NCBI GenBank assembly: GCA_964354495.1 | Contig: CAYHAA010000001.1 | Location: forward strand, 517,049 to 549,048 | Source: an uncultured archaeon | Lineage (GTDB): Archaea > Asgardarchaeota > Thorarchaeia > Thorarchaeales > Thorarchaeaceae | DNA: 32,000 bases | Reading direction: 5' to 3' | Part shown: positions 1-20,547 of the stretch, one piece after another | Layout: the number at the start of each line of letters is the position of its first letter | Numbering within the stretch: the stretch's first letter is position 1 | Made by a program: the position numbers and the translations under genes | Notes under the pieces: generated by a model | The model's input: the letters and a program-made list of their open reading frames with translations, nothing else | Told to the model about the DNA's origin: nothing | Database searches by the model: none

Positions 1-783
1 CGGGGAAGCATCATCTGTGCCACTCACAATTCAGCAAAATCCTACCTTGACCAGACTGGAGTCGGAGTCCTTTCTGACCAATGGCGTCCACTGATTGACA
101 GCCTATTGATGACACCTGTTGACACTTCTCTCTCTGTCGTGATAAAGGCTGATGACCGAGACTCGTCGGTGGACATGATGACCATTGGCGTAAGTGTCGT
201 AGACGGTTCATATGAGGTGCTCCAATCCTCGATCGTGAATGGAAATGTATCTATCGAACTAGTCATAGAGTCCGATACTCTCGTGACACCGTACATCAAC
301 AGCCTCCTCTTCAATCTAACATCCGAATCAGAATCACTCTTCTCACCACTAGTCATGCTCTCAGGGTCGGCTGGCGGATTCATGAGAATCACGAGCGCAT
401 CATTGGATACCTCAATAGTCCGTGTCGGCCTTCTCCATAATGAGCAGATATCCGGTCAATTCACGCTAGAAGGATTTGCGCTCGCAACTGATGTCTTGAT
501 AGGCTTCCGTTATTCCTCTGGTCTGTGGTTTAATTTCACGCTTCCAGGTATCGAGGGTCTCTATGAGTTTCTCATTACTCCCGCAGGGTTTCCTGCAGGT
601 AATTATGATGTCTATGCTATCGCCAGAGGTGCTGCAGCGTATACGACCGAGCTGAACTTCGCTACACTGTCGATCATTGAGGATAATACAGCAATCATTA
701 TGGGAATCGGACTGGTGGTTATTGCCATTGCAGTTATCTTGGTCATGAGAAAAATGAGAGATAGAAGAGGTTTTGAATCATGA
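1..783 (+). CDS. C-terminal fragment of a membrane-anchored surface/secreted protein (5'-truncated by the window edge)
   Basis: Frame 1 has no stop from base 1 to TGA 781-783, so the ORF extends upstream of the listed TTG at 106. It is beta-rich and ends in a hydrophobic helix (AIIMGIGLVVIAIAVILVM) followed by a basic tail (RKMRDRR). Confidence 0.75.
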   Translation, partial: RGSIICATHNSAKSYLDQTGVGVLSDQWRPLIDSLLMTPVDTSLSVVIKADDRDSSVDMMTIGVSVVDGSYEVLQSSIVNGNVSIELVIESDTLVTPYINSLLFNLTSESESLFSPLVMLSGSAGGFMRITSASLDTSIVRVGLLHNEQISGQFTLEGFALATDVLIGFRYSSGLWFNFTLPGIEGLYEFLITPAGFPAGNYDVYAIARGAAAYTTELNFATLSIIEDNTAIIMGIGLVVIAIAVILVMRKMRDRRGFES

Positions 784-2060
784 GAGTAGTAATAGTTGGC
801 TACGGTCCTGGTGGAGCAGCTGCAGCAATTGCAGCAAGGATGTTCGATCCCGAAGCCGACGTAAGAATCCTGACTGAGGAGGTTATTGACGCCCACAAGA
901 AACCAGGTGCCTCGCTTGCTTTGGAGTTCCCAGATACAAAGGATCTATCAATCAACGACTGGTCCATAAGCTCACTTGAAAAGAAACGCATCGATGTTGT
1001 CACTGGTACGAGCGTCATTGGCGGAAATCCGAAGTCAAGAACGCTCAAGGCAAAGAACGAGCAGGGCAAATCGACAGTGAAGTATGATTGTCTCATCTTA
1101 GCCACTGGAGGCATTCCGAATGTCCCAGAGATACCAGGAACTAATCTGCTTGGCATATTCACGATTCAGAACATGGCTGACACAAGCGAGATTGGCAGAC
1201 AACTCTCACAAATGAACAAGGTTGTCATTGTCGGTGCTGGATTCAGTGGTCTTGAAGCTGCAGAGAGACTGATTGCTCTTGGCAAAGATGTGCACATGAT
1301 TGTCCGTTCACGTCTCATGAGAAGGCAACTGGAGGATTCGATGAGTGATGAACTCCAATCAAGGCTGCCCGAGAGCCTCAGGATGCACTTTGGTAATTCT
1401 CCAACAGCGGTTTGCGGCGACAAACGCGTTCAGGGTATTCTTCTTGGAGACGAACAGATTGATGCGGATGCTGTTCTTTTCATGACTGGCGTCAGACCCA
1501 ATACAGCTCTTGCTCAACAACTTGGTACCAATATTGGTAGTCTTGGCGGAATTCTCGTTGATGAGCAGATGCAGACCTCTGTCAAGGGCATCTTCGCTGT
1601 GGGGGATTGCGTAGAGATGAAGGACTCGTATACCGGATTCAATCTTCTTCTTCCGGTTGGCAGTGTCGCAGCGAGAGCGGGAAAACAAGCTGGCGTTGCG
1701 GCAGTGGGAGGCACCAAGATATACGGAGACACATCAATGCGACTTCAATACGACAGAATCTTTGGAAATGATGTTGTCTGTGTCGGTCATTCCTCGACTA
1801 GCGCTAAGGACTTGGGTGTCAAGACGAAAGTCCAGTATGTTGAGGATCCTAGTGAGTTTAGCAAGGCCGCGCTCGTTATCGGACCAAGGGGTCAACTGAT
1901 TGGCGGACAGGTGATAGCCCCTAGACAAGGTGCTCGGCTTGGATATGAGATTTTGGAACGTGTTGAAAGCAAAGCCAAACTCAAGACTCATCCGCTTCTT
2001 AAGCCGCGTCATGAACGGCTTCGCGATTTTCTTGAATCCACTTTCGGCCCTATTCAATAG
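780..2060 (+). CDS. FAD-dependent pyridine nucleotide-disulfide oxidoreductase family protein (CoADR/NADH oxidase fold, atypical)
   Basis: FAD motif VIVGYGPGG, ATGG motif, NAD(P) motif VVIVGAGFSGLE and the FAVGDC motif. ATGA overlap with the upstream gene. The usual redox Cys near residue 42 is absent. Confidence 0.88.
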   Translation: MRVVIVGYGPGGAAAAIAARMFDPEADVRILTEEVIDAHKKPGASLALEFPDTKDLSINDWSISSLEKKRIDVVTGTSVIGGNPKSRTLKAKNEQGKSTVKYDCLILATGGIPNVPEIPGTNLLGIFTIQNMADTSEIGRQLSQMNKVVIVGAGFSGLEAAERLIALGKDVHMIVRSRLMRRQLEDSMSDELQSRLPESLRMHFGNSPTAVCGDKRVQGILLGDEQIDADAVLFMTGVRPNTALAQQLGTNIGSLGGILVDEQMQTSVKGIFAVGDCVEMKDSYTGFNLLLPVGSVAARAGKQAGVAAVGGTKIYGDTSMRLQYDRIFGNDVVCVGHSSTSAKDLGVKTKVQYVEDPSEFSKAALVIGPRGQLIGGQVIAPRQGARLGYEILERVESKAKLKTHPLLKPRHERLRDFLESTFGPIQ

Positions 2061-4941
2061 ACGGTGGGGGTACCTCCCACTCATCCTGAGGTTCTTCCAC
2101 TTTGGGCTTGGGTTTTCTCCCGGAGCCGTATTTGAGCCATCCGACATATGTCAGCCCGATGCCCACCACACCAAGCAACGTGTAGACAACAGCCTGAATG
2201 AACACATCATCTGCTGCATTCACAGGCACAAGAATCGTCTTTTGGAATATCTTGATATTGCCCCCTGTATCAGATGCCTCCACTTGGATTGAGTAGAATC
2301 CTCCACTACTGAATGCAAATGTCGTTGAGAACTTGTAGCCTTGGTTCTCTGTTACTACGCCTGTGAGGTTTGTGTTTCCGGGTCCGATGATGTCAATCGA
2401 TACACTCTCTAGATCATCATCAAAGACATATGCAGTAATGTTCGCAGGTTCGCCGAACTCCCCCATGTTCATTTCAACATCATAGATTCTGGGGGCGTCA
2501 GGGAGAATTGCCTCGGCGAGGTTTCTGAGTAGTCCTAGGTTATCTGCTCCAAAACGAATTGCGTCGGCCAATATATCATCATAGAGCGTCGAACCATCCG
2601 AGATGACAAATACATGGCCGTTTCCATACTCTGCAGTGGCCACAATCGCATGATTCTTAGATGAGTCCGCCCAGAACAACCCCTTTGCATTTGAGATGCT
2701 TGGTTCAACGTGGAGTGTGCTTCCTTGGACAATGTAAAGACTCGTCACTCCCTCCATTAGTGAAACATTTTCTACTGCGCTTCCGAGATCAGCATCGTAT
2801 AGCAGTCCAGAGCCTCCGGGACCATCACCTATCCCGTTTTGTTCGCACTGTATGCCAAAGGGTTCAAGTATGAGGTTATAGGATTCTATTCCAAATGTCG
2901 CAATATGTGTTGTATCATTCCAGAACTCTGATAGTACTAAGAGAGTTCCACCATTTTCAACAAACCCATGCAATGCTGCAATCTCAGAATCAGAATATGC
3001 TGTTTCAGTATCCATGATCATGAAGACATCTGAGCTGGAGATTGTGCCAAGGTCAATGTAGCTCCTTATGAGATCACTAGGACTTCCGAATTCTGTGAGC
3101 AGCATGCCTCGCTCTCTTAGGTATTCAGTGAAGTACCCAAAGTAGGACGGGTCATCGATGTCTCCAGTCAGCCCAGTTGAGTGGTGCTCCATATCAACCA
3201 TCAGTCTCCCACCAAAGAGAGTAATTCTGAACTCAATATCGATTGTAGCGATTGTCGTGCTCTCCACACTCAAATTCAACGCTCCAGTGTAGAGCCCTGC
3301 ATTCGTAAGAGGCAGGTCATCAGGAATATTCAGGTAAATGCCGAAGTGCGAATAGCCAGAGATCACTGAGACCTGTCCGATATTCGTTTCCACATATTGG
3401 CTTGCATTTCCCGAAATCGTGATGCTGGCTGTTCCAGCTTGCACAGTGGAAATGACAGTGATATTCTGAGGTGGTCTGTCGTCTCCTACAATCAATACCT
3501 GTGAGCTCCAAGGGAGGGTAGGGAACCGTCTTGGCGTCATGATGGTTATGTCACGTGCAGAGTCATTCAGGGTCTGAGAAGCTCGAGTAACATTGACCAG
3601 ACCCCACCCCTGAAGCATTGGATCAAGGCCTAGGTCCGTGGATGACAACATCAGTGCTGTCTTTGCCTCTTCCGGAGTCAGCACAAGATGTTTCTGTGCC
3701 AACAGCGCAACAGCGCCTGCGACCATGGGAGCTGACGCTGATGTTCCTGACCAGACTGTGTAGTTGTCGCCGTATTGTGTGAAGTTGTAACTGAGATACT
3801 CACTAGCAATCGCATCCTCGCCCCTTCCCGAAACAACATAGTACCCAGGTGCGACGACATCTGGCTTAGCCATGTATCCTTTGGGTTGTGAAACAGTTCT
3901 CCAGACTGGACCTACACTACTGAATGCAATGACTCCCTCAGTTCCCGATGATGCTCCGACCGTAATGACCTCTTCTGTGATTCCTGGCGAGTTGATGGAG
4001 AACGCCTGTGGTCCTGAATTTCCAGCGGCGACTACTACAGAAATGCCCGCATCAACGGCGTTTCGACAGGCTACTACGGAAGGTTCGACAACGAAACTAC
4101 CGTCTGCCCATTCGCCACCTAGACTTAGGCTTATTACATCTGCGTCGCTATCAATAGCAAACTCGATGCCCTGTGCAATGACTGAGTCATCACCAGAACC
4201 CTCATTATCGAGAACCTTGATGGAAAGAATGCTCGCACCAGGAGCCATACCTGTGAGATTGCCACCGCTTGCTGTGCCATCCCCTGCCACATTCCACGTG
4301 CATGCAGTACCGTGACCATTGTCGTCGTAGGCATCGATGCCGTTGGCAGGTGTCATATCATCTTGTCCATTGATGAGGTCCTTGAATCCAATCAGCCGGT
4401 TCTCTAGATCTGGATGATTTCCGTCCACTCCGCTGTCCAACACAGCGACAACAATACCGCTTCCATTGAATCCCTGCTCCCACAAGCCATTGGTGTCCAT
4501 GATTTCAGTGAAGTGTACATACTCATTTCCATTTGCAGCCAGCACAAACCGCAGGTCTGCTGCTTGAGAGGTAATCTGTCTGTTCATGTCTAGTGTCAGC
4601 GCTATCATCTTGGAGACATGAGTAAGCTTGGTGATTTCATCGCTCCTCACATATAGCGAGACCATTGGCATGATATGGAATGCATGTCTTATCTGAATGC
4701 TGCTAGCCTTTGACATGAGAATTGAGGCAGTCATCTCTTCTGGAGTGCTTCCTTCAGGAAACAACGCGACAAGTGGCATTACATCATCTGATTGAGACCC
4801 TGCTAAGGCAGCAATCAAACTTGCGCTCATGAAGGTGTCCAGAGTTGAATCTGCGGCACTAGATTTCCATACAGACACTGGTGAGAACATCAATGTCAAG
4901 AGAATTAAGAGAACGATGGCGGGTCTACGAATCGCTGGCAT
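2050..4941 (-). CDS. Membrane-anchored S8 subtilase with a C-terminal GATase-like (DUF4350/IFT52-type) domain; site-1-protease-like architecture
   Basis: Signal peptide ([15 protein letters not shown]), prodomain, catalytic triad VAVLDSG / GHGT / [11 protein letters not shown], oxyanion AAGNSGP, an alpha/beta domain at about 2570-3210, a C-terminal TM helix and a short charged tail. The ORF could start at 4971 or 4959; 4941 is preferred because a GGAAGG RBS-like sequence lies about 9 nt upstream. Confidence 0.92.
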   Translation of the reverse strand: [963 protein letters not shown]

Positions 4942-5128
4942 TGCTGCGTGTCCTTCCATGTCGTCAGCCATCAGTACAAAGATAAGGCTTTTCTTCCATG
5001 CTAGTCAGCTTTGGCAAGCTGCTGCTTCGAAGCTCGGGAATGCCGAGAAGGAAGAACAAATCCTTTCAGGTCCACTTATCGATGAGGCTGCATTAGGACA
5101 TCACAATCAGAAATCGGAGCGCATGAGA

Positions 5129-5419: not shown

Positions 5420-5555
5420 TCACAGCTGAAGCCCTTGTATCTGGTTCTTAATGGGAAACAATCTCTTCTTCCCTCTTTGTGCTCTCACAGTTTTGCCAGA
5501 ATAGTTTTAACCTAGCATATGCCTATCCTATCGATATGAGTTGGGAGGCCCTCCA

Positions 5556-6647
5556 ATGACTGTTTCGGCTGTTGTATCAGGCTTTCAATCACTAGTTGCT
5601 CTTGGCACACCGATGGATGATATTCTCGCTATCGGTATTTTCGCGCTACCACTTGCTGCTCTAGGAATCATTCTTCTGATCTATCAGCGACACCTTCCAC
5701 AGAATGAGCTCAAACGCAATCTCATGGTGGTATCTGGTATCATCTGCCTAGCAGCAACTTCTCTGGGCGTCCTCTTTGCGGCTTCCAGTGGACTTCCCTG
5801 GGGGGGTTTTGGGTCTCGGGAAACATTCTCACGAGGGCTGCAACTGCTTGTAGATCTATTCTTCGGATCAGTTCTGTTTTCTCTCCTGTACCTTCTCGGA
5901 TGCGTGGTCTTCTTTGCACTTCTGGCTCACTTTATCATTGCGGCTCCAGAACCAGATCTGGTCAGTCTGAGAACAGAGATGAAGGCGGCCAAGGAAGAAG
6001 CCAAACTTAGCAAGGAAGCTCTTCAGCGACTTGAGGTGGACAACAAGCGACTCAATGAATTCCTCTCCGAGAAAGAGACATCACTAACATCTCTTGAGGG
6101 GGAGCTTGAAACAATTAAGGCAGAGATAAGCGAACGTGAAGGGTCGATATCTCTGATGGAAGAACAACTCAAAGCAAAAGCAGGGCCTTCAGGAATTGAA
6201 GGTTCGCTTCAGACTCAAATTCAGCAAAGGGATGCGACCATCGTCTCTCTCCAGTCCGAAATCGCAGACCTAGGCCTCAAGCTCGAGAGCACCAAGGTCA
6301 AGCTCCCACCCGCACGAGATGACCGCAAGTTGGCGGAGCTTGAGAAAAGCCTGCAGAATAGTCAAGCTAGATGGATTGACTTGACCCGTCGTGCTGAAAC
6401 TGCTTCGCAGGTTTCTGACAGTGTCATCTCTGACTTGGTCGAGCTGATTTCACAGGTCAAGGCCAGCAAGAAAGACGAGCCAACAAAACAGACACTGATC
6501 ACGCTCATCGAGGGTCTTGGAAGGTCCATGACTAGAGTTTCCCGAGAAGTCGGAGATGTTCGGACTGACGAACCGAAGATTGAGCTGATTGGTGCCATTA
6601 TTACGACCAACGAAATAGTAGATGCTGTCAAGAAAGTGATTCGTTAG
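5556..6647 (+). CDS. Three-TM membrane protein with a long coiled coil
   Basis: GGAGG RBS at 5544-5548 before ATG 5556. Three hydrophobic segments lie in the first ~125 aa, followed by ~170 aa of E/K/L-rich heptad-like sequence and a helical C-terminus. Confidence 0.85.
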   Translation: MTVSAVVSGFQSLVALGTPMDDILAIGIFALPLAALGIILLIYQRHLPQNELKRNLMVVSGIICLAATSLGVLFAASSGLPWGGFGSRETFSRGLQLLVDLFFGSVLFSLLYLLGCVVFFALLAHFIIAAPEPDLVSLRTEMKAAKEEAKLSKEALQRLEVDNKRLNEFLSEKETSLTSLEGELETIKAEISEREGSISLMEEQLKAKAGPSGIEGSLQTQIQQRDATIVSLQSEIADLGLKLESTKVKLPPARDDRKLAELEKSLQNSQARWIDLTRRAETASQVSDSVISDLVELISQVKASKKDEPTKQTLITLIEGLGRSMTRVSREVGDVRTDEPKIELIGAIITTNEIVDAVKKVIR

Positions 6648-6825: not shown

Positions 6826-6907
6826 GCGTACAGAGGATGCCATCTTTTTTTGATGGTATGTCTCTGTTCGCGTTGTTCTCTACTAATGCGTGAGGAGAAA
6901 ACGAAAC

Positions 6908-9900
6908 ATGAACAACCTGAAGAAAAATTCGGTGTTGTTGTTGATTGTCATCATGACCCTTAGTATGGTGATGGTGCCATTCACACCAACGACACAAGTA
7001 AATCCGCAGGTTGCAACACCGCAGGTGTCAACTCCTGAGCAGGTCATGCAAGATCTGGATAAATATATCCAGGAGAGGAGTTTGACAGGCCCGCTGGACT
7101 CAGTTCTATCTGCCTATCTTGAGACAGGCACTTTCCCGAGCAGTGTCCCAAAGAACAATGCTGGAGCGATGGGAATTATCGTTACAGTTGAATCTGACAC
7201 TGACATGGCCGGTCTCGAAGAGATAATCGATGTCAACTGGAAGGTTGACCTTGGCGCTATGAAACTTGTAAGCGCATTTGTAGGCAGCACAGATAATGTA
7301 CTAGCTCTAGCAGACTTCGATGGTGTTGTGGCTGCATATGCGGACAGTCTTAAGACTGAAGTCACAACTGGCATAGAACCCAGACCAGTGACAACTGCAG
7401 ATACACCACACGATGAGGTACCAGATGCCTATGTAGTAGACGACTGGATCGGTGCAACTACAGTGAATCTTTTGGGATACGAGGGCGAAGGAATGAGAGT
7501 TGGAGTCATCGACACTGGTTCGGACTTCAGTATTCCCGACCTTGTAGACGCAGTCGACATCGGGGCTGATGGCATGCCAACAAGCTATGACCCAACAGGC
7601 TATGGCTTCGGTTGTCTGCTCTACAGAGTGAACGCCACAGCTGTGAATGCTACGACTTGGCTAGGCGCTTCATCATGGAACCTGCTGAGCTACCTGAAGG
7701 ATGGCAAGTACTATGTTGACTGGTCAAGCATGGGCGCAGCAGCAAACTACGTCAATGGTGGTGGTCCTCGTGTCAACAACCAAGGTGGTCTTGTGAACTT
7801 GGACTGGTGGACCTATGGTTACCTCGCCGCATGGTGGGGCAATGCATACCAGAACCAGGCAAACCTGACTGACTTCTATGAAACAGTCATGAGACAAGAC
7901 CAAGAGTTGCCAAACCCGAACACGACTATGAGCAGCCCACTCTCTGGTGGCGCTCGCTACTACACCATTGGGTACATTATGCAGCAGCGCAGCAATCCAT
8001 ACATGAAGATCTTTGCGACAGCAATCGTGCTTAACGGCACAACGATCGTCGTGGACTGGAACACAACTCGTGCTCACACTGACTTCTGGAACCTGAACAT
8101 CAACTATGGTGTCTGGGACTTCAATGACACAGCCGCATGGGACTACTACGAGGCAATGGGTGACTGGAGCTTCGTCGATGACCTTGAGGCTGGCAAGTAC
8201 TACAAGAAAGATGGTACTACAGAACACTCGGTTATGTATAATGACTGGCCAGATGGCCGGTTCGGATTGGGTGTACTGGCACACTGCTGGGAAATGAACA
8301 TCTTCGGACTTGGCATGATCAATGGCATTGGCCTCAGTGGTCGTGCAATTGGTATCATGTATGACGGCAACGCACACGGCACATTCGTTGCAGGTCAGAT
8401 TGCAAGCCGAGGCTTAACAGACTACCCAGTTGGCTTGAACGGAACACTCCAGAGACTAGTTGGTGTTGCTCCGCAAGCGACTCTCATGGGAGTCATGGCA
8501 ATTGGCATTTCCAATGAGTTCAACTCCATGTTCTACGCAGCTGGATTCGACTTCGACGGAAGTTACTTCTCGTGGAACAATGAGAGCGCTCACCAGATGC
8601 AGATCACAAGCAACTCTTGGGGCTGGTCTGGCAACCAGGACAACGAGCTATGGGCTATCTATTCGCTCATCTATGCAGCTATTGCCACACCTGGATACTT
8701 CGATGAAGACTATCCTGGTATGGTCCAATGCTTCTCGTCCGGCAACTCAGGTCCGGGCTATGCAACAGTCGGTGCTCCTGGAGCTGCTCAACTCATCCAC
8801 GTTGGTGCAACAACCAGCTACCATACCTTCGAGAGCTCGTATGGGCCCGACCAAGGCTTTGACCAGTTGGCCAGCTTCTCATCGCGAGGACCTATGATTC
8901 TTGGCTATCCCAAGCCTGACATCGTTGCTCCAGGGAACAACGTCTTCGGACTATTCCTTCACTATGACAGGATATTCCTAGGCATCAATGACGATACGGC
9001 TATCTACGGTGGTACATCAATGGCCTGTCCTCTTGCTGCTGGTGCAGCGGCACTGATGATAGAGGCATACAATGTTACCAACGGAGTAATGCCACGTCCT
9101 GACTACATCAAGACGGTAATGCAGAGCACTGCGGTGGATCTTGGAATGGATCCTCTGGCTCAAGGTAACGGTCGCCTGGATGTTGCGGCTGCTGTCGATT
9201 ACATCCTAGGCAACGATGGTGTGAGATGGCACAACACAGACTCGAACGCCAATTGGGGTATCGAGTACGGCGATGCTTGGGCATACCAGATGAACCCATA
9301 CGACGGTGACGCATTCATCAATGACACAGTACCGGCAAACTATGCTGACATGAACCTCTACTTCGGCACTGTTGCGCCTGGTGGCACGGTCAGTATGACC
9401 TTCCACGGAACGCATGCCGACGGTTCTCCAGTTACATTTGCCGAATACACTTGGGCTCCGACATACTTCGAGTTCGATCAGCTCATTCAGTTCACATACC
9501 AAACATCCATCTACAACGAGTCGACCTCTACGGGTTCGCCTTCAACTAAAGCTGGATGGTTCGAGTTTGCTGATGTTATGGACTCCTCTCAACTGAGCGA
9601 TTTCATGAACGCGAAATATGTCACAATCCACATCTCTGGCGAGGAGGCGGTCTTCTATGACGATAGCATGTGGGCCTTCGTCTTCGACTGGGATGACACC
9701 AACGTGACAAATGGCGTACCCGACTACTACAACCCGACCACTGGGCAGGGTGATGAACTCACCAGATGGCAGTATGGCGGTGGTACAGCACAGAACATCA
9801 AGATGGATCTATGCCATCCCGATGGCATTGGAAACCTCTTCCCGAACACGGGTATCGTCATGGTCCATGATGACAACATCTGGAGTTGGCCCTACACTGG

Positions 9901-11728
9901 CGGCAACCTCCTTGATGTGAAAATAGTCCTATGGACCGAGGTGCCTGACGCTCAGATAGCACTCGGCATTAATCCTGCTGGCGGCATCTTTGCGAACCTG
10001 ACAGTCGCTGCCACGACAGACTATGGTATCCACCAAGGATACATTGTCGTGTACGAAGGTCCTGAGTTTGTGGACAGTATTCCATACACCTTCGACGTCG
10101 TTGCTGAACTAGCAACACACGATGGTTCAGGTGTGGAGCTTGCTAACGGAGCAGGTGATGTGTGGACTCCATACGATCCCGCTCGCGTCAACGCAGGTTG
10201 GGACACCTACTACGAGTCATGTGACTATGGTTCATACATAGTCGACATAACCGATGTTGCAGTGAGGAATGTTGTTGTCAGAGTAGAATGGACTAACCCA
10301 AGTACAGATATTGACGTAGCCCTCTTTGATATCTCAGGACTCAGCTTTGGTAGCACCGCAGGTGCAGACAAGGCTACTGAAACTTCATCCGTGGCTATAG
10401 TTGCAGTAACTGAACCAATGCGGTTAATCATCTACACCATTGTGAACTGGCTTGAAGGACCATTGCCTGAGAACTATGTTGTGACCATCTATGGCTACGA
10501 CGAGAACCTACCCTCGCCTGAGCTGCAGCTGACCTACTACTCGAGAGACGTGCCAACAAAGACACCTATCTCTGGTGGCGGCACTGCTGCTGGTGACCAC
10601 GTCATACTGAACGCAACTTGGACCTATCCTGCGGTCGGTGGTATCCCGGAGTTCATAGTGACTACCACAGAGATCAAAGTACTATATGGTGCGCTATTTG
10701 ATTCTGGTGATCAGCCACTTACGAACAACTTGGGAACCAATCCATTCAGCGGTACAATCAACCCTGATGCATTCGCTTGGGAGACCGTCCCAGTTGGTAT
10801 AGGTGATGTTGCACGAGTTGTCGTCGACTTCACGAACGGTGACTGTGACATCATGGCTTGGTACTCGACAACAGATATGGGTTCCAGGACATATGCCAAC
10901 AACCTCTTGGGCGCTCAGATGGCCACAGGAGCTCATCCTGAAGTTGGCTCCTTCACTGTGACTCAGACAGGCAATGTGGAGTTTGGTATCTTTAACTACG
11001 ACAACGCAGCAGGTACATACCGATTGACAGTTGACACCCGACTTGGTCTCGAACCAGATCGTGTGGATACTGACACAATCGAGATCGATACCTACTACCT
11101 CATGGCGAACGCTACCTACTCAGTCCTCATTGACAGTGATACTGGTACGAATATACACTACATGCTGGAGATACCCGATATCTTCATCGGTAACTTCTTC
11201 GCGCCAGTGGTGACTGTTGATGTGCCTGATGAGATCAGCACCAACTACTTCAACATCACATGGTCCTCCTATGACAGGAATGCGGATGACGTGAACTACT
11301 ACGCGCTCTTCTTGAGCAACGATAACGGTGAGTCGTACCAACTGATACAGCAGAATGGTACCCAGCCATTCTACTTGTGGAATGCGTCTGGTTGGGCCGA
11401 GGACACCTACAAGGTCAAGGTCCGTGCCTATAGCCTCGACTTCACGAACTTCACAGCCTTAGGCTTTGACGATGGAGTCTTGTGTGGAGTGGACAACCCA
11501 CCCACGAGCTACTGGCCCGGTGACTTTGCTGATGGCTTCTCTGCTTCATTCGATGCAGGAGATGTCCCACCAGTGACCACACCAACGACTACAACAACGA
11601 CCACAACCACAACCACAACAACCACACCGCCATCCGGCGGCATTGACCCATTGTTGATTGGCTTAGTTGGCGGTATTGGAGTAGGTGTTGTCATCATCCT
11701 CATCCTCTTCCTGATCAGGAAGAAGTAG
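6908..11728 (+). CDS. Large pyrolysin-like S8 serine protease, cell-surface anchored
   Basis: Signal peptide after MNNLKKN and GAGGAG RBS at 6892-6897. Triad VGVIDTG (Asp codon 7511), NAHGTFVAG (His codon 8375) and GGTSMACP (Ser codon 9017); FSSRGP and KPDIVAPG motifs. Beta-rich C-terminal domains, a Thr-rich linker, a TM helix and an RKK tail. Many N-x-S/T sequons. Confidence 0.93.
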   Translation: MNNLKKNSVLLLIVIMTLSMVMVPFTPTTQVNPQVATPQVSTPEQVMQDLDKYIQERSLTGPLDSVLSAYLETGTFPSSVPKNNAGAMGIIVTVESDTDMAGLEEIIDVNWKVDLGAMKLVSAFVGSTDNVLALADFDGVVAAYADSLKTEVTTGIEPRPVTTADTPHDEVPDAYVVDDWIGATTVNLLGYEGEGMRVGVIDTGSDFSIPDLVDAVDIGADGMPTSYDPTGYGFGCLLYRVNATAVNATTWLGASSWNLLSYLKDGKYYVDWSSMGAAANYVNGGGPRVNNQGGLVNLDWWTYGYLAAWWGNAYQNQANLTDFYETVMRQDQELPNPNTTMSSPLSGGARYYTIGYIMQQRSNPYMKIFATAIVLNGTTIVVDWNTTRAHTDFWNLNINYGVWDFNDTAAWDYYEAMGDWSFVDDLEAGKYYKKDGTTEHSVMYNDWPDGRFGLGVLAHCWEMNIFGLGMINGIGLSGRAIGIMYDGNAHGTFVAGQIASRGLTDYPVGLNGTLQRLVGVAPQATLMGVMAIGISNEFNSMFYAAGFDFDGSYFSWNNESAHQMQITSNSWGWSGNQDNELWAIYSLIYAAIATPGYFDEDYPGMVQCFSSGNSGPGYATVGAPGAAQLIHVGATTSYHTFESSYGPDQGFDQLASFSSRGPMILGYPKPDIVAPGNNVFGLFLHYDRIFLGINDDTAIYGGTSMACPLAAGAAALMIEAYNVTNGVMPRPDYIKTVMQSTAVDLGMDPLAQGNGRLDVAAAVDYILGNDGVRWHNTDSNANWGIEYGDAWAYQMNPYDGDAFINDTVPANYADMNLYFGTVAPGGTVSMTFHGTHADGSPVTFAEYTWAPTYFEFDQLIQFTYQTSIYNESTSTGSPSTKAGWFEFADVMDSSQLSDFMNAKYVTIHISGEEAVFYDDSMWAFVFDWDDTNVTNGVPDYYNPTTGQGDELTRWQYGGGTAQNIKMDLCHPDGIGNLFPNTGIVMVHDDNIWSWPYTGGNLLDVKIVLWTEVPDAQIALGINPAGGIFANLTVAATTDYGIHQGYIVVYEGPEFVDSIPYTFDVVAELATHDGSGVELANGAGDVWTPYDPARVNAGWDTYYESCDYGSYIVDITDVAVRNVVVRVEWTNPSTDIDVALFDISGLSFGSTAGADKATETSSVAIVAVTEPMRLIIYTIVNWLEGPLPENYVVTIYGYDENLPSPELQLTYYSRDVPTKTPISGGGTAAGDHVILNATWTYPAVGGIPEFIVTTTEIKVLYGALFDSGDQPLTNNLGTNPFSGTINPDAFAWETVPVGIGDVARVVVDFTNGDCDIMAWYSTTDMGSRTYANNLLGAQMATGAHPEVGSFTVTQTGNVEFGIFNYDNAAGTYRLTVDTRLGLEPDRVDTDTIEIDTYYLMANATYSVLIDSDTGTNIHYMLEIPDIFIGNFFAPVVTVDVPDEISTNYFNITWSSYDRNADDVNYYALFLSNDNGESYQLIQQNGTQPFYLWNASGWAEDTYKVKVRAYSLDFTNFTALGFDDGVLCGVDNPPTSYWPGDFADGFSASFDAGDVPPVTTPTTTTTTTTTTTTTTPPSGGIDPLLIGLVGGIGVGVVIILILFLIRKK
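11576..11626 (+). repeat. Poly-threonine linker (ACN codon repeat)
   Basis: TTP followed by 14 consecutive Thr codons using ACG, ACT, ACA and ACC. Confidence 0.9.
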
Positions 11729-16982: not shown

Positions 16983-17597
16983 ATGTCTGAAAAAGAAAAT
17001 GAGAATCATGAGATGGAGATTGACATGTCTGATGACGGTCTTGACTCTGAAGAAATGATTGAAATCACACCTGAAAACCCTGATGTGAAGGATCTTGAGA
17101 GGGAACGACAGCGTTCAAGGGATCTGTTTGACAGACTCCAGAGGCTCCAAGCTGAGTTTGATAACTACAGAAAGCGAATGGACGCGCGGTTTTCAGAAGC
17201 AACAAAATTTGTCAGCGAAGGCATACTCCTCAAGATGCTGGATGTCTACGACAATTTGCTTCGTGCTCTTGAGATTGACTTTGGCAAGAACACAAAGAGT
17301 GCTGAGGACGGCATCAAGGCAATACGACAGCAGATGGAGAAGATACTCACCGCCGAAGATGTTAGACCAATCAAGTCAGTTGGTCTGCCCTTCGACCCCT
17401 ACTATCAACATTCTGTTGGCATCCATCAGGACCCGAAGGTACCCGATGGAATTGTTGCTGAAGAATATCAAGTTGGGTATATGTTAAAAGAGAAGGTGTT
17501 ACGACCGGCTATAGTATGCGTGAATAGACACAGAGTTCCTGACAATGATGCGACTAAGAGTAAGAGTGAGAAGACACACAAGGATAGTGAAGTATAA
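16983..17597 (+). CDS. grpE: Nucleotide exchange factor GrpE
   Basis: [19 protein letters not shown] and [17 protein letters not shown] motifs; directly upstream of dnaK. Confidence 0.95.
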
Positions 17598-19486
17598 TGG
17601 CGAAGGTTGTAGGTATCGATCTTGGAACAACATATAGTGGCATTGCATATATGCTGGCTGGAAAGCCAACTATGATTCCAAATGCTGAAGGACAGCGAAT
17701 TACCCCGTCCGTTGTTGGAATCACACCCAAGGGTGAAGTTGTTGTTGGCGAGCTTGCAAAGCGACAAGCTGTGTCAATGCCTGAAAGAACAGTGCGTTCA
17801 ATCAAACGCAAGATGGGACAAGACTACAAAGTCAAGATAGGTGACAAGGATTATGCTCCTCAGGAAATCTCGGCCATGATTCTTACCAAGTTGAAGCGTG
17901 ATGCTGAGGCATTCCTGGGTGAACCAATCAAACAGGCTGTGATTACAGTTCCTGCCTATTTCAATGACAGTCAGCGACAGGCAACAAAAGATGCTGGAAA
18001 GATTGCTGGCCTGGAGGTCTTGCGTATCGTGAATGAGCCAACAGCGTCGGCACTTGCCTATGGTCTGGATAGGAAGGAGGAGGTCAAGATTCTTGTCTAT
18101 GATCTCGGGGGTGGTACTTTTGATGTGTCAATTCTCGATATTGGTGAGGATGTCTATGAGGTTCTTGCAACCAGCGGAAATACGCAGCTCGGTGGAGATG
18201 ATTGGGATAAACGAATCATTGATTGGGTTGTTAGAGAGTTCAGGAAGTCGACAGGAATGGATGTAACAAAAGATCTCTCTGCAATGCAGCGTATCCGTGA
18301 TGCATCTGAACAGGCTAAGATTGAACTCTCTACAGTCCTGAAGACAACAATCAACCTGCCCTACATCACAGCAGACCAAAGTGGTCCGAAACATATCAAC
18401 CTTGAACTCACCCGTTCTCAATTGGAGAAGATGACCGACGATCTAGTTCAAGCGACAATGGGCCCTATTAGGCAAGCTCTCAGCGATGCGAAGTTGGAGC
18501 CCGAGCGCCTCGACAAGATTCTGCTTGTCGGTGGTGCAACAAGAATGCCGATGATTCAGAATTCTGTTAGAGCGATGTTCGGAAAGGAAGGTGACAAGAG
18601 TATCAATCCTGATGAGGTCGTTGCTCTCGGAGCCGCTGCTCAAGCAGGAGTTCTTACTGGTGAAACCAAGGAGGTCGTGCTTCTTGATGTCACTTCTCTG
18701 ACACTCGGTATCGAGACTCTGGGAGGCATATCGACTCCACTGATTGAACGCAATACAACAATTCCGATTTCCAAGAGCAAGATCTTCTCAACAGCGGCTG
18801 ACCATCAGACAGCCGTCGACATCCATGTGACTCAGGGTGAGCGCAAGATGGCTGGTGATAATATGACTCTCGGCCGATTCCAGCTTGTGGGAATTCCACC
18901 AGCGCCTCGCGGCGTGCCAAAGATAGAAGTGTCCTTCGACATCGATGCTAACGGCATCGTCAATGTAAAGGCAAAGGACCTTGCCACAGGCAACGAGCAG
19001 TCCATAACTATCACAGCAAGCACCAATCTGTCAGACGCAGATGTGAAGAGAATGGTTAAGGACGCAGAGAAGAATGCTGAGGAGGACGCAAAGCGATTCG
19101 CTCAGATTGAAACCAGGAACAATGCTGACCAGATGATATACCAAGGAGAAAAACTTGTCAAGGACATGGGTGACAAAGTTCCAGCTGATCTCAAGAAGGA
19201 ACTAGAAGCCAAGTCTGAGGATGTCCGAAAGTCGATTGAAGCCAATGATTATGAAAAGATGAAGTCCGGGACTGACGAACTTCAGCAGATAATCTTCAAG
19301 ATATCGGAGAAGGTCTATGGTTCTGCAGGCCCTGGAGCTCAAGCTGGCGGAGCTGGCTTTGATCCCTCGAAAATGGGCGGTTTCGATTCTTCTAAGAGGA
19401 GTGGCACAAAGAGCAAGAAAGGACCAAAGCCTGACGATTCCTCTGACGAGGATGTAGTTGACGTGGACTTTGAAGATCTAGATTAG
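17597..19486 (+). CDS. dnaK: Chaperone DnaK (Hsp70)
   Basis: [48 protein letters not shown] and [15 protein letters not shown] motifs. Confidence 0.99.
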
Positions 19487-19509
19487 TCCTTCATAGTGAG
19501 GTGAGCTTC

Positions 19510-20547
19510 TTGGCTGAGGATGATTACTATGATATGCTTGGCGTTGGAAGGAATGCAACCCAAGATGAAATCAAGAAAGCATATCGAACGCTTGCCAAGA
19601 AGTATCATCCTGATCGTAACCCCAATGACAAAGCAGCGGAGTCGAAACTGAAAGCTATCAACGAGGCTTACAGTGTCCTTGGAGATCCTGAGAAGCGCAC
19701 TAAATACGACCGGTGGGGAACAGCAGATGAGCAAGGTATTGACATGGACAACTTTGGTGACATGTTCAGCTCAATCTTCCGCGGGTTTGGTGGTTTTGGT
19801 GGGTTCGGAGGCCGAGGTGGACCTTCGGGACCCGAGCCGGGGCAGACACTTCGGATTTCAATCGATCTTACCTTTGATGAAGCCTTCTTTGGCATTGAGA
19901 AGGAAATTGCATTCAACAGGAAGATACATTGTGAGACCTGCAAGGGATCGGGAGCCGCGAAAGGTAGTGCAGCCAAGACCTGTCCAACGTGTCGTGGTCA
20001 AGGCCAAATCGCTCGGTCGATGGGATTCCTGAGCGTCGCCCAGACATGTCCTACATGTGGTGGAATTGGCGAGACTGTTGATACGCCTTGCCCTGATTGT
20101 AGAGGTCAGGGTCTTCGGAGTGAGCGCCGGAAGACTACGCTGCCAGTTCCTCCCGGCGTTGAAGATGGGCAGGGTATAAGAATTCCAGGCGGCGGAAATG
20201 CAGGTGCTCGAAGAGGACCCTATGGCGATCTCATTGTCATGTTCAGTGTTGCGCCTCATGAGAAATTTGTTCGACGAGGGCTACACGTCTACATGGAGCA
20301 CGAGATACCATTCTCTCTTGCAGTGCTGGGTGGTGAAGTAGAGGTACCCACGATGAGGGGACTGAGTAAGATGAAAGTCTCCCCGGGCACTGAGGGTGGA
20401 ACATTGTTCCGAATGAAGGACAAGGGCGTTCATGCGGAAGATGGTCGTCGAGGTGACCAGCTCGTCCGAGTCAAGATTCAGATTCCTCGGAAGCTCTCGA
20501 AGGAACAGAAGGAGTATCTCAGCAGGTTCTCAGAGGTCTTTGATTAG
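19510..20547 (+). CDS. dnaJ: Chaperone DnaJ (class A)
   Basis: J-domain with HPD, G/F-rich region and four CxxCxGxG repeats. Start is TTG 19510 (GAGGTGA upstream) or GTG 19501. Confidence 0.97.

Follow-up and report, generated by a model that had tools for sequence, protein, structure and literature searches.

A thorarchaeal membrane-anchored subtilase with the domain order of eukaryotic site-1 protease

Site-1 protease (S1P; also known as MBTPS1 or SKI-1, and as SBT6.1 in plants) initiates SREBP and ATF6 signalling, among others, in the eukaryotic secretory pathway. The mature enzyme consists of a Peptidase S8 domain, a P-like beta-sandwich (residues 479–616), a GIFT domain (617–998), a transmembrane helix and a tail (PMC11231238, PMC12067269). 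An N-linked glycan at N515 lies at the interface of the S8 and P-like domains and is required for the folding of S1P, and the S1P partner SPRING has been described in eukaryotes only (PMC11231238). A phylogenetic survey of 2019 proposed a eukaryotic origin of the S1P lineage (PMC6713707), and no paper linking Asgard archaea with S1P was found in our literature search. Here we describe a subtilase gene on a stretch of 32,000 nucleotides from an uncultured member of the Thorarchaeaceae (contig CAYHAA010000001.1, positions 517,049 to 549,048; the whole stretch is called the window below). The order of the parts of this thorarchaeal subtilase matches that of S1P (PDB 8UW8, 8UWC, 9CSD), both having a signal peptide, a prodomain, S8, a beta-sandwich, GIFT, a single transmembrane helix and a short tail. 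As annotated and modelled, and at the level of architecture, no other prokaryotic protein that we found comes closer to the S1P/MBTPS1 body plan.

The subtilase is encoded by a single open reading frame of 973 codons plus stop (Table 1). Two starts are possible, as residue 11 is a second in-frame methionine (window position 4941) that opens a canonical signal peptide. Pfam places Peptidase_S8 at residues 170–457 (E 1.9e-56) and gives weak, sub-threshold matches to DUF4350, IFT52_GIFT, ABC_transp_aux and MBTPS1_4th for residues 640–800. The hydropathy profile has a signal or anchor segment at the N-terminus and one C-terminal transmembrane segment, and the ectodomain contains 13 N-x-S/T sequons. 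Two AlphaFold2 (AF2) models were built from family alignments, one of residues 465–935 with a predicted local distance difference test score (pLDDT) of 87.6 and one of the full-length protein with a pLDDT of 86.7 and a predicted TM-score of 0.78. The models delimit the prodomain, a disordered linker and the S8 domain exactly as listed in Table 1; in the C-terminal half the limits are 476–584 for the beta-sandwich, 588–821 for the alpha/beta GIFT domain and 828–915 for an Ig-like domain, with a transmembrane helix from residue 923. A first-pass annotation, made from the letters of the window, had proposed the same anatomy from signal peptide to tail, and Pfam, the AF2 models and hydropathy all agree with it. 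The assignment of the prodomain is further supported by one relative that matches Inhibitor_I9.

The S8 domain combines a subtilisin fold with an Asp-His-Ser triad in the order of the family and an oxyanion-hole asparagine. D179, H220, S411 and the oxyanion residue N318 do not vary across 71 aligned sequences of the wider family, from which we predict that the thorarchaeal subtilase should be catalytically active. The GIFT domain shows the class-I-GATase-like alpha/beta fold together with the sequence motifs of the GIFT clan. At the other end of the protein, the motif EWE[LV]PPP[SA]IE forms the extreme C-terminus (window 2053–2085, minus strand) in most Thorarchaeota orthologues, down to an overall identity of ~50%. 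Odin/Baldr-type relatives of ~1250 aa carry a cytoplasmic zinc ribbon after the transmembrane helix in place of this motif. The presence of either a conserved tail motif or a zinc ribbon in these sequences suggests a cytoplasmic partner, or a coupling of the protein with the cytoplasm.

The likeness to S1P is seen at the level of structure. A Foldseek search of the PDB with the full-length model returned S1P (9CSD_A) as the first match (E 4.6e-40, 768 columns, 21% identity), and the comparison with 8UWC, in which prodomain, S8 and P-like domain are resolved, gave a TM-score of 0.71. The first-pass annotation had claimed that this likeness continues collinearly beyond the catalytic domain and had proposed a Foldseek comparison of the post-catalytic region as a check. 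This region, searched on its own as a model, again ranked S1P first in the PDB (9CSD_A, E 2.1e-14). Among the AlphaFold models of Swiss-Prot S1P was the best match as well, with rat, mouse and human S1P and Arabidopsis SBT6.1 all found, and residues 9–361 of the post-catalytic model aligned with residues 479–877 of S1P.

Profile comparisons lead to the same result. The full family profile gave one unbroken alignment with S1P (S1P residues 192–731), and a profile starting at residue 272 gave one collinear alignment (296–774) with 179 bits. The alignment runs without a break from S8 through the sandwich into GIFT and thereby crosses both domain junctions, and HMMER pairs the segments exactly as the first-pass annotation had done. 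Two near-invariant prolines of the linker, P480 and P487, align with P486 and P499 of S1P. The sequon N503-I-T505 (window 3457–3465, minus strand) lies in the first core strand of the beta-sandwich and is paired with N515-V-T of S1P; 48 of the 71 family members have a sequon at this column, but among the 29 that diverge most only 8 have one. A diverse profile of the family, limited to the post-catalytic region, retrieved S1P at E 5.5e-14, the match covering only S1P residues 605–857, i.e. GIFT. Single-sequence searches of the PDB with residues 465–935 and with residues 425–600 gave no match, and S1P is therefore visible only to profiles and folds. Of the five S1P strings given in the first-pass annotation, four are present in PDB 8UW8/8UWC, where 'RILWDQYH' really reads RVLWDQYH; the fifth, 'GGGRIVLYGDSNCLDDS', a putative part of S1P, lies beyond the printed alignment.

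A comparison in the feature space of the ESM-Atlas pointed in the same direction. For residues 150–830 the nearest entries were eukaryotic S1P clusters (0.95, 193 of 256 features), which outranked even the Thorarchaeota cluster of the protein itself. Residues 150–470, searched alone, retrieved generic bacterial S8 clusters only, which weakens the case for a particular affinity of the catalytic domain to S1P; the top rank of S1P with the longer segment is consequently due to the domains in combination.

Within the Asgard archaea the family has a wide distribution and is represented in at least nine classes. A word-indexed search yielded more than 150 close homologues, all of them, among the matches listed, from Thorarchaeota or 'Promethearchaeota' metagenome-assembled genomes (MAGs). 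When 1.84 billion representatives were searched with a profile, 673 matches were obtained, of which the top 150 are archaeal or unnamed, and about 40 representative clusters have the layout of signal peptide, prodomain, S8, sandwich, GIFT and transmembrane helix. Named Asgard members come from Thor-, Odin-, Hel-, Njord-, Heimdall-, Baldr-, Ran- and Asgardarchaeia. Prevalence outside the Asgard archaea is known from the names in source records alone: all S8+GIFT clusters with a source name are archaeal and most of them Asgard, while many clusters are nameless and may include bacteria. No bacterium is included in the named S8+GIFT relatives, but Bathyarchaeia do carry the architecture. The members from Bathyarchaeia/Thermoproteota MAGs combine S8, sandwich, GIFT and transmembrane helix with several extra Ig domains. 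The survey of Asgard genomes that had been recommended found a match in 181 of the 301 GTDB genomes of the phylum and in 69 of the 76 genomes of the window's own family. The subtilase family is a core gene of Thorarchaeota. At least two further S8+sandwich+GIFT proteins are encoded in the same genome, and several more of its open reading frames match the GIFT part only.

The genomic neighbourhood of the gene is conserved. In all six Thorarchaeota loci examined, which represent five genera, a block is found that consists of a hypothetical gene, a pyridine-nucleotide-disulphide oxidoreductase gene, the subtilase gene and the divergent gene for a coiled-coil membrane protein. The latter adjoins the subtilase gene in every case, and its product could be a partner or a substrate of the subtilase. 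An LMBR1 label for this neighbour was rejected, since the match was below cut-off and the sequence consists of a transmembrane anchor and a coiled coil. In four of the six loci the synteny extends to the giant subtilase gene that follows. On the other side, the oxidoreductase gene (780–2060, plus strand) and the subtilase gene (2050–4971, minus strand) converge and overlap with their 3' ends by 11 bases (2050–2060), and this tail-to-tail arrangement is kept in related loci. A grpE-dnaK-dnaJ operon is located at 16983–20547 (plus strand); further along the window are genes for an M24 peptidase, an S33 aminopeptidase-like hydrolase and a P-type cation ATPase, which have an ordinary housekeeping look. 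No M50 gene and no sign of a membrane-bound transcription factor were found within the window; three M50 loci are present elsewhere in the genome.

Table 1. Features of the thorarchaeal subtilase, its neighbours and related proteins of the same genome (window coordinates unless a contig is given)
Feature	Position	Strand	Basis
Whole open reading frame, type-I membrane-anchored subtilase zymogen (predicted)	2050..4971	-	open reading frame, Pfam, AF2
N-terminal signal peptide region, residues 1-40, hydrophobic core 16-37	4852..4971	-	hydropathy; helix 16-29, low pLDDT
Prodomain, subtilisin I9-like beta-alpha-beta fold, residues 46-135	4567..4836	-	AF2 superposes on ProN-Tk-SP from residue 46
Flexible linker between prodomain and S8, residues 136-149, probable autoprocessing region, contains RFVL	4525..4566	-	pLDDT <50; alignment
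S8 catalytic domain, residues 150-470	3562..4524	-	
Catalytic residue D179	4435-4437	-	
Catalytic residue H220	4312-4314	-	
Catalytic residue N318 (oxyanion hole)	4018-4020	-	
Catalytic residue S411	3739-3741	-	
Beta-sandwich after S8, residues 471-586; counterpart of Tk-SP beta-jelly-roll and S1P P-like subdomain	3214..3561	-	
GIFT / class-I-GATase-like alpha/beta domain, residues 587-826	2494..3213	-	
Ig-like beta-sandwich stalk, residues 827-917	2221..2493	-	
Single transmembrane helix, residues ~923-946	2134..2205	-	AF2, hydropathy
Cytoplasmic tail, 27 residues: basic stretch, then EWE[LV]PPP[SA]IE	2053..2133	-	
Divergent neighbour, 368 aa, ~3 N-terminal transmembrane helices, long coiled coil	5541..6647	+	
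Giant membrane-anchored S8 subtilase, 1612 aa: signal peptide, poly-Thr/Thr-rich stalk, C-terminal transmembrane helix, 20 sequons	6890..11728	+	
Paralogue, 660 aa, weak S8 match, sandwich+GIFT	contig 10		
Paralogue, 1466 aa: S8, ~400 extra residues, then sandwich and GIFT	contig 4		
679-aa protein, sandwich+GIFT, S8 not detectable	contig 1 at 612-618 kb		

The reading that we favour, and consider rather probable, is that the protein is a catalytically intact, N-glycosylated, type-I membrane-tethered surface subtilase that belongs to an archaeal S8/sandwich/GIFT/transmembrane superfamily, the fusion of which probably has a common origin with S1P. As judged from the sequences retrieved, this superfamily spans the Asgard classes and some Bathyarchaeia. 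Several observations weigh against a close tie to S1P. They concern each part of the protein in turn, and the catalytic domain comes first. In sequence searches S1P ranked behind Tk-SP of Thermococcus kodakarensis and dozens of ordinary subtilisins, and for a Heimdallarchaeota member S1P was absent among 55 PDB matches at E <= 1e-15. Tk-SP (PDB 3AFG, 9UES) matches the thorarchaeal subtilase with E 8.7e-53 in phmmer. Common to both are the I9-type prodomain, S8 and a C-terminal beta-jelly-roll that packs against the catalytic domain. The Tk-SP chains of known structure (539 and 427 residues), however, end after the beta-jelly-roll, the match stopping at model residue 576, and nothing in them corresponds to the GIFT domain, the Ig stalk, the membrane anchor and the cytoplasmic tail of the subtilase. 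The Bacillus Vpr-type S8 protease (PDB 8JMW) differs by an insertion of ~120 residues inside its S8 domain (chain residues 355–476); the match to it extends no further than the beta-sandwich (chain residue 700, model residue 584), and a GIFT part is missing.

Individual residues and sites of S1P also differ from those of the archaeal protein. In the alignment, the S4-pocket residues D312 and D315 of S1P stand opposite W288 and V295 of the subtilase, and D339 stands opposite S319 (PMC12067269); neither the S4-pocket nor the P1 residues of S1P are kept at their positions, although the equivalent of the S4 loop is rich in acidic residues (E287, D290, E296). In contrast to S1P, the subtilase has a single prodomain and lacks conserved processing sites of the type R-x-aliphatic-x, and its tail ends in an acidic/Pro motif instead of being only basic. 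None of the S1P alignments reaches the Ig-like domain ahead of the transmembrane helix of the subtilase.

Further points concern the domains after S8. The likeness of the modelled beta-sandwich to the P-like domain of S1P is structural only: the sandwich alone has no significant sequence match to S1P, the P-like model PF23094 (MBTPS1_3rd) has no match at E <= 1 in the subtilase, and it was found above cut-off in none of the 301 Asgard genomes. PF23090, the model of the fourth domain of S1P, reaches 11.8 bits (E 0.16) with the subtilase at a cut-off of 27. It matches 17 of 29 family representatives at E <= 0.01 (best 7.8e-9), and the GIFT domain scores higher with IFT52_GIFT and ABC_transp_aux, of which the former matches 25 and the latter all 29 representatives. 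This clan of IFT52 GIFT (PDB 5FMR, 5FMS), GldG, ABC_transp_aux and DUF4350 differs from the subtilase in that IFT52 is cytosolic and without a protease fusion and the bacterial members are joined to other enzymes or to ABC systems. The pair of beta-sandwich and DUF4350/GIFT occurs in many bacterial proteins, where it is joined to unrelated enzymes, among them GH88, VWA, gingipain and S49. These proteins have Foldseek E-values equal to or better than that of S1P, and the bacterial pair also fits better (TM-score 0.54, 4.5 Å over ~320 residues) than S1P does (9–12 Å). Superposition of the whole model on S1P is loose (TM-score 0.48, root mean square deviation 7.8–10 Å), and the orientation of the GIFT domain therefore either differs or is mis-predicted. 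The layout is also not exclusive to Asgard archaea, two clusters coming from the Bathyarchaeia/Thermoproteota MAGs mentioned above.

An independent assembly of the protein from common prokaryotic modules is the strongest rival to the favoured explanation, although we hold it to be rather unlikely. A Tk-SP-like subtilase would then have gained a prokaryotic beta-sandwich/GIFT/Ig/transmembrane surface module on its own, the likeness to S1P would stem from shared building blocks and not from common descent of the fusion, and the enzyme would, together with other tethered exoproteases, supply food to an archaeon that ferments peptides. Such convergent shuffling is in agreement with the far better fit of S8 plus beta-sandwich to Tk-SP than to S1P, with the failure of the S1P-specific P-like model to match, with the occurrence of the sandwich/GIFT pair next to unrelated enzymes in bacteria, with the reuse of the module in the same genome both with and without S8, and with the second, giant surface subtilase that adjoins the gene. 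The combination of GIFT, Ig and transmembrane helix, moreover, mirrors the whole layout of OST48/WBP1 (PDB 8B6L_N, 6EZN_G) and not that of S1P; OST48 itself has no protease part, and its sequence similarity to the subtilase is weak (profile E 2e-3). Asgard homologues of WBP1 have been reported to be restricted to Heimdallarchaeia including Njordarchaeales (PMC10307638). Against convergence stands the profile alignment with S1P, which crosses both junctions and pairs the linker prolines and the position of the sequon. The S8+GIFT fusions of named source are archaeal only and mostly Asgard, a distribution that fits vertical descent to eukaryotes, and a conserved tail motif or zinc ribbon is unexpected in a purely nutritional protease.

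The first-pass annotation had gone further and had taken the gene to imply a two-cut pathway of S1P and site-2 (M50) proteases that may predate eukaryotes. This inference found no support. Two-step intramembrane proteolysis is already established in bacteria (DegS/RseP, SpoIVB/SpoIVFB). The co-occurrence of M50 proteases is ruled out as evidence for two cuts; it is uninformative because all 14 control genomes carry M50 as well. The sequence RFVL in the linker is likewise ruled out as a conserved autoprocessing site of the S1P type, the closest orthologues having NQAII, SQAVV or EEFIV instead. As RFVL is not conserved and the S4-pocket residues are not matched, the sequences give no support to a specificity of the S1P type. 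That the gene encodes a true prokaryotic orthologue of S1P, which has a preference for P4 Arg and an aliphatic P2 and makes the first cut of a pathway finished by M50, is accordingly very improbable: the collinear architecture, the top rank of S1P in structure and feature searches, RFVL at the junction of prodomain and catalytic domain, the acidic loop in place of the S4 loop, the three M50 loci of the genome and the constant coiled-coil membrane neighbour would be in line with it, but D312, D315 and D339 are not positionally conserved, the S8 domain has no specific affinity to S1P, the window lacks an M50 gene and a membrane-bound transcription factor, and the at least two further S8+beta-sandwich+GIFT paralogues exclude a one-to-one relationship.

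For the membrane-tethered surface subtilase that we favour, the following mode of action can be proposed. As the sequence shows, the ectodomain is exported by a Sec signal peptide and anchored in the membrane by the C-terminal helix. By analogy to Tk-SP, subtilisin and S1P, the I9-like prodomain presumably serves as a folding chaperone and as an inhibitor until it is removed autocatalytically in the linker (residues 136–149). Superposition of the models shows that prodomain, S8 and beta-jelly-roll form a core of the archaeal Tk-SP type, to which GIFT domain, Ig-like stalk, transmembrane helix and conserved tail are added as a module; the fold of this module is taken from the model and its putative role from the cryo-electron microscopy of S1P. 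The GIFT domain probably supports loops that lie next to the active-site cleft on its S4 side, and restricts the access of substrates. The enzyme most likely cleaves extracellular or surface-exposed proteins near the membrane. We prefer, by a small margin, maturation or shedding of surface proteins to bulk digestion, because the synteny is kept in all six loci and a tail motif or a zinc ribbon is conserved, both of which speak for a specific role.

The S1P layout in Thorarchaeota suggests that the body plan of S1P predates eukaryotes. A common origin of the fusion is plausible, because the alignment is continuous across both junctions and the distribution is largely Asgard, but we would not yet call it likely. 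Somewhat less likely than not is the assumption that the S8/P-like/GIFT/transmembrane fusion arose once in archaea, was passed from an Asgard ancestor to the first eukaryotes and there became S1P. In this case S1P would be an unrecognised eukaryotic signature protein of Asgard origin, with the thorarchaeal gene representing the ancestral family, and, by extension, the eukaryotic GIFT modules of S1P, OST48 and IFT52 would trace to Asgard surface proteins. If the three-domain ectodomain and its anchor were already present in Asgard archaea, a protease of the secretory pathway would join the eukaryotic signature proteins that are rooted in archaea. The thorarchaeal subtilase would then also offer a simple prokaryotic model, free of SPRING, for the roles of the P-like and GIFT domains in a subtilase. 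Even if the likeness to S1P is convergent, the family makes up a class of archaeal surface proteases that is conserved and abundant and yet unstudied, and the conserved tails on the cytoplasmic side are a hint that these enzymes are regulated across the membrane.

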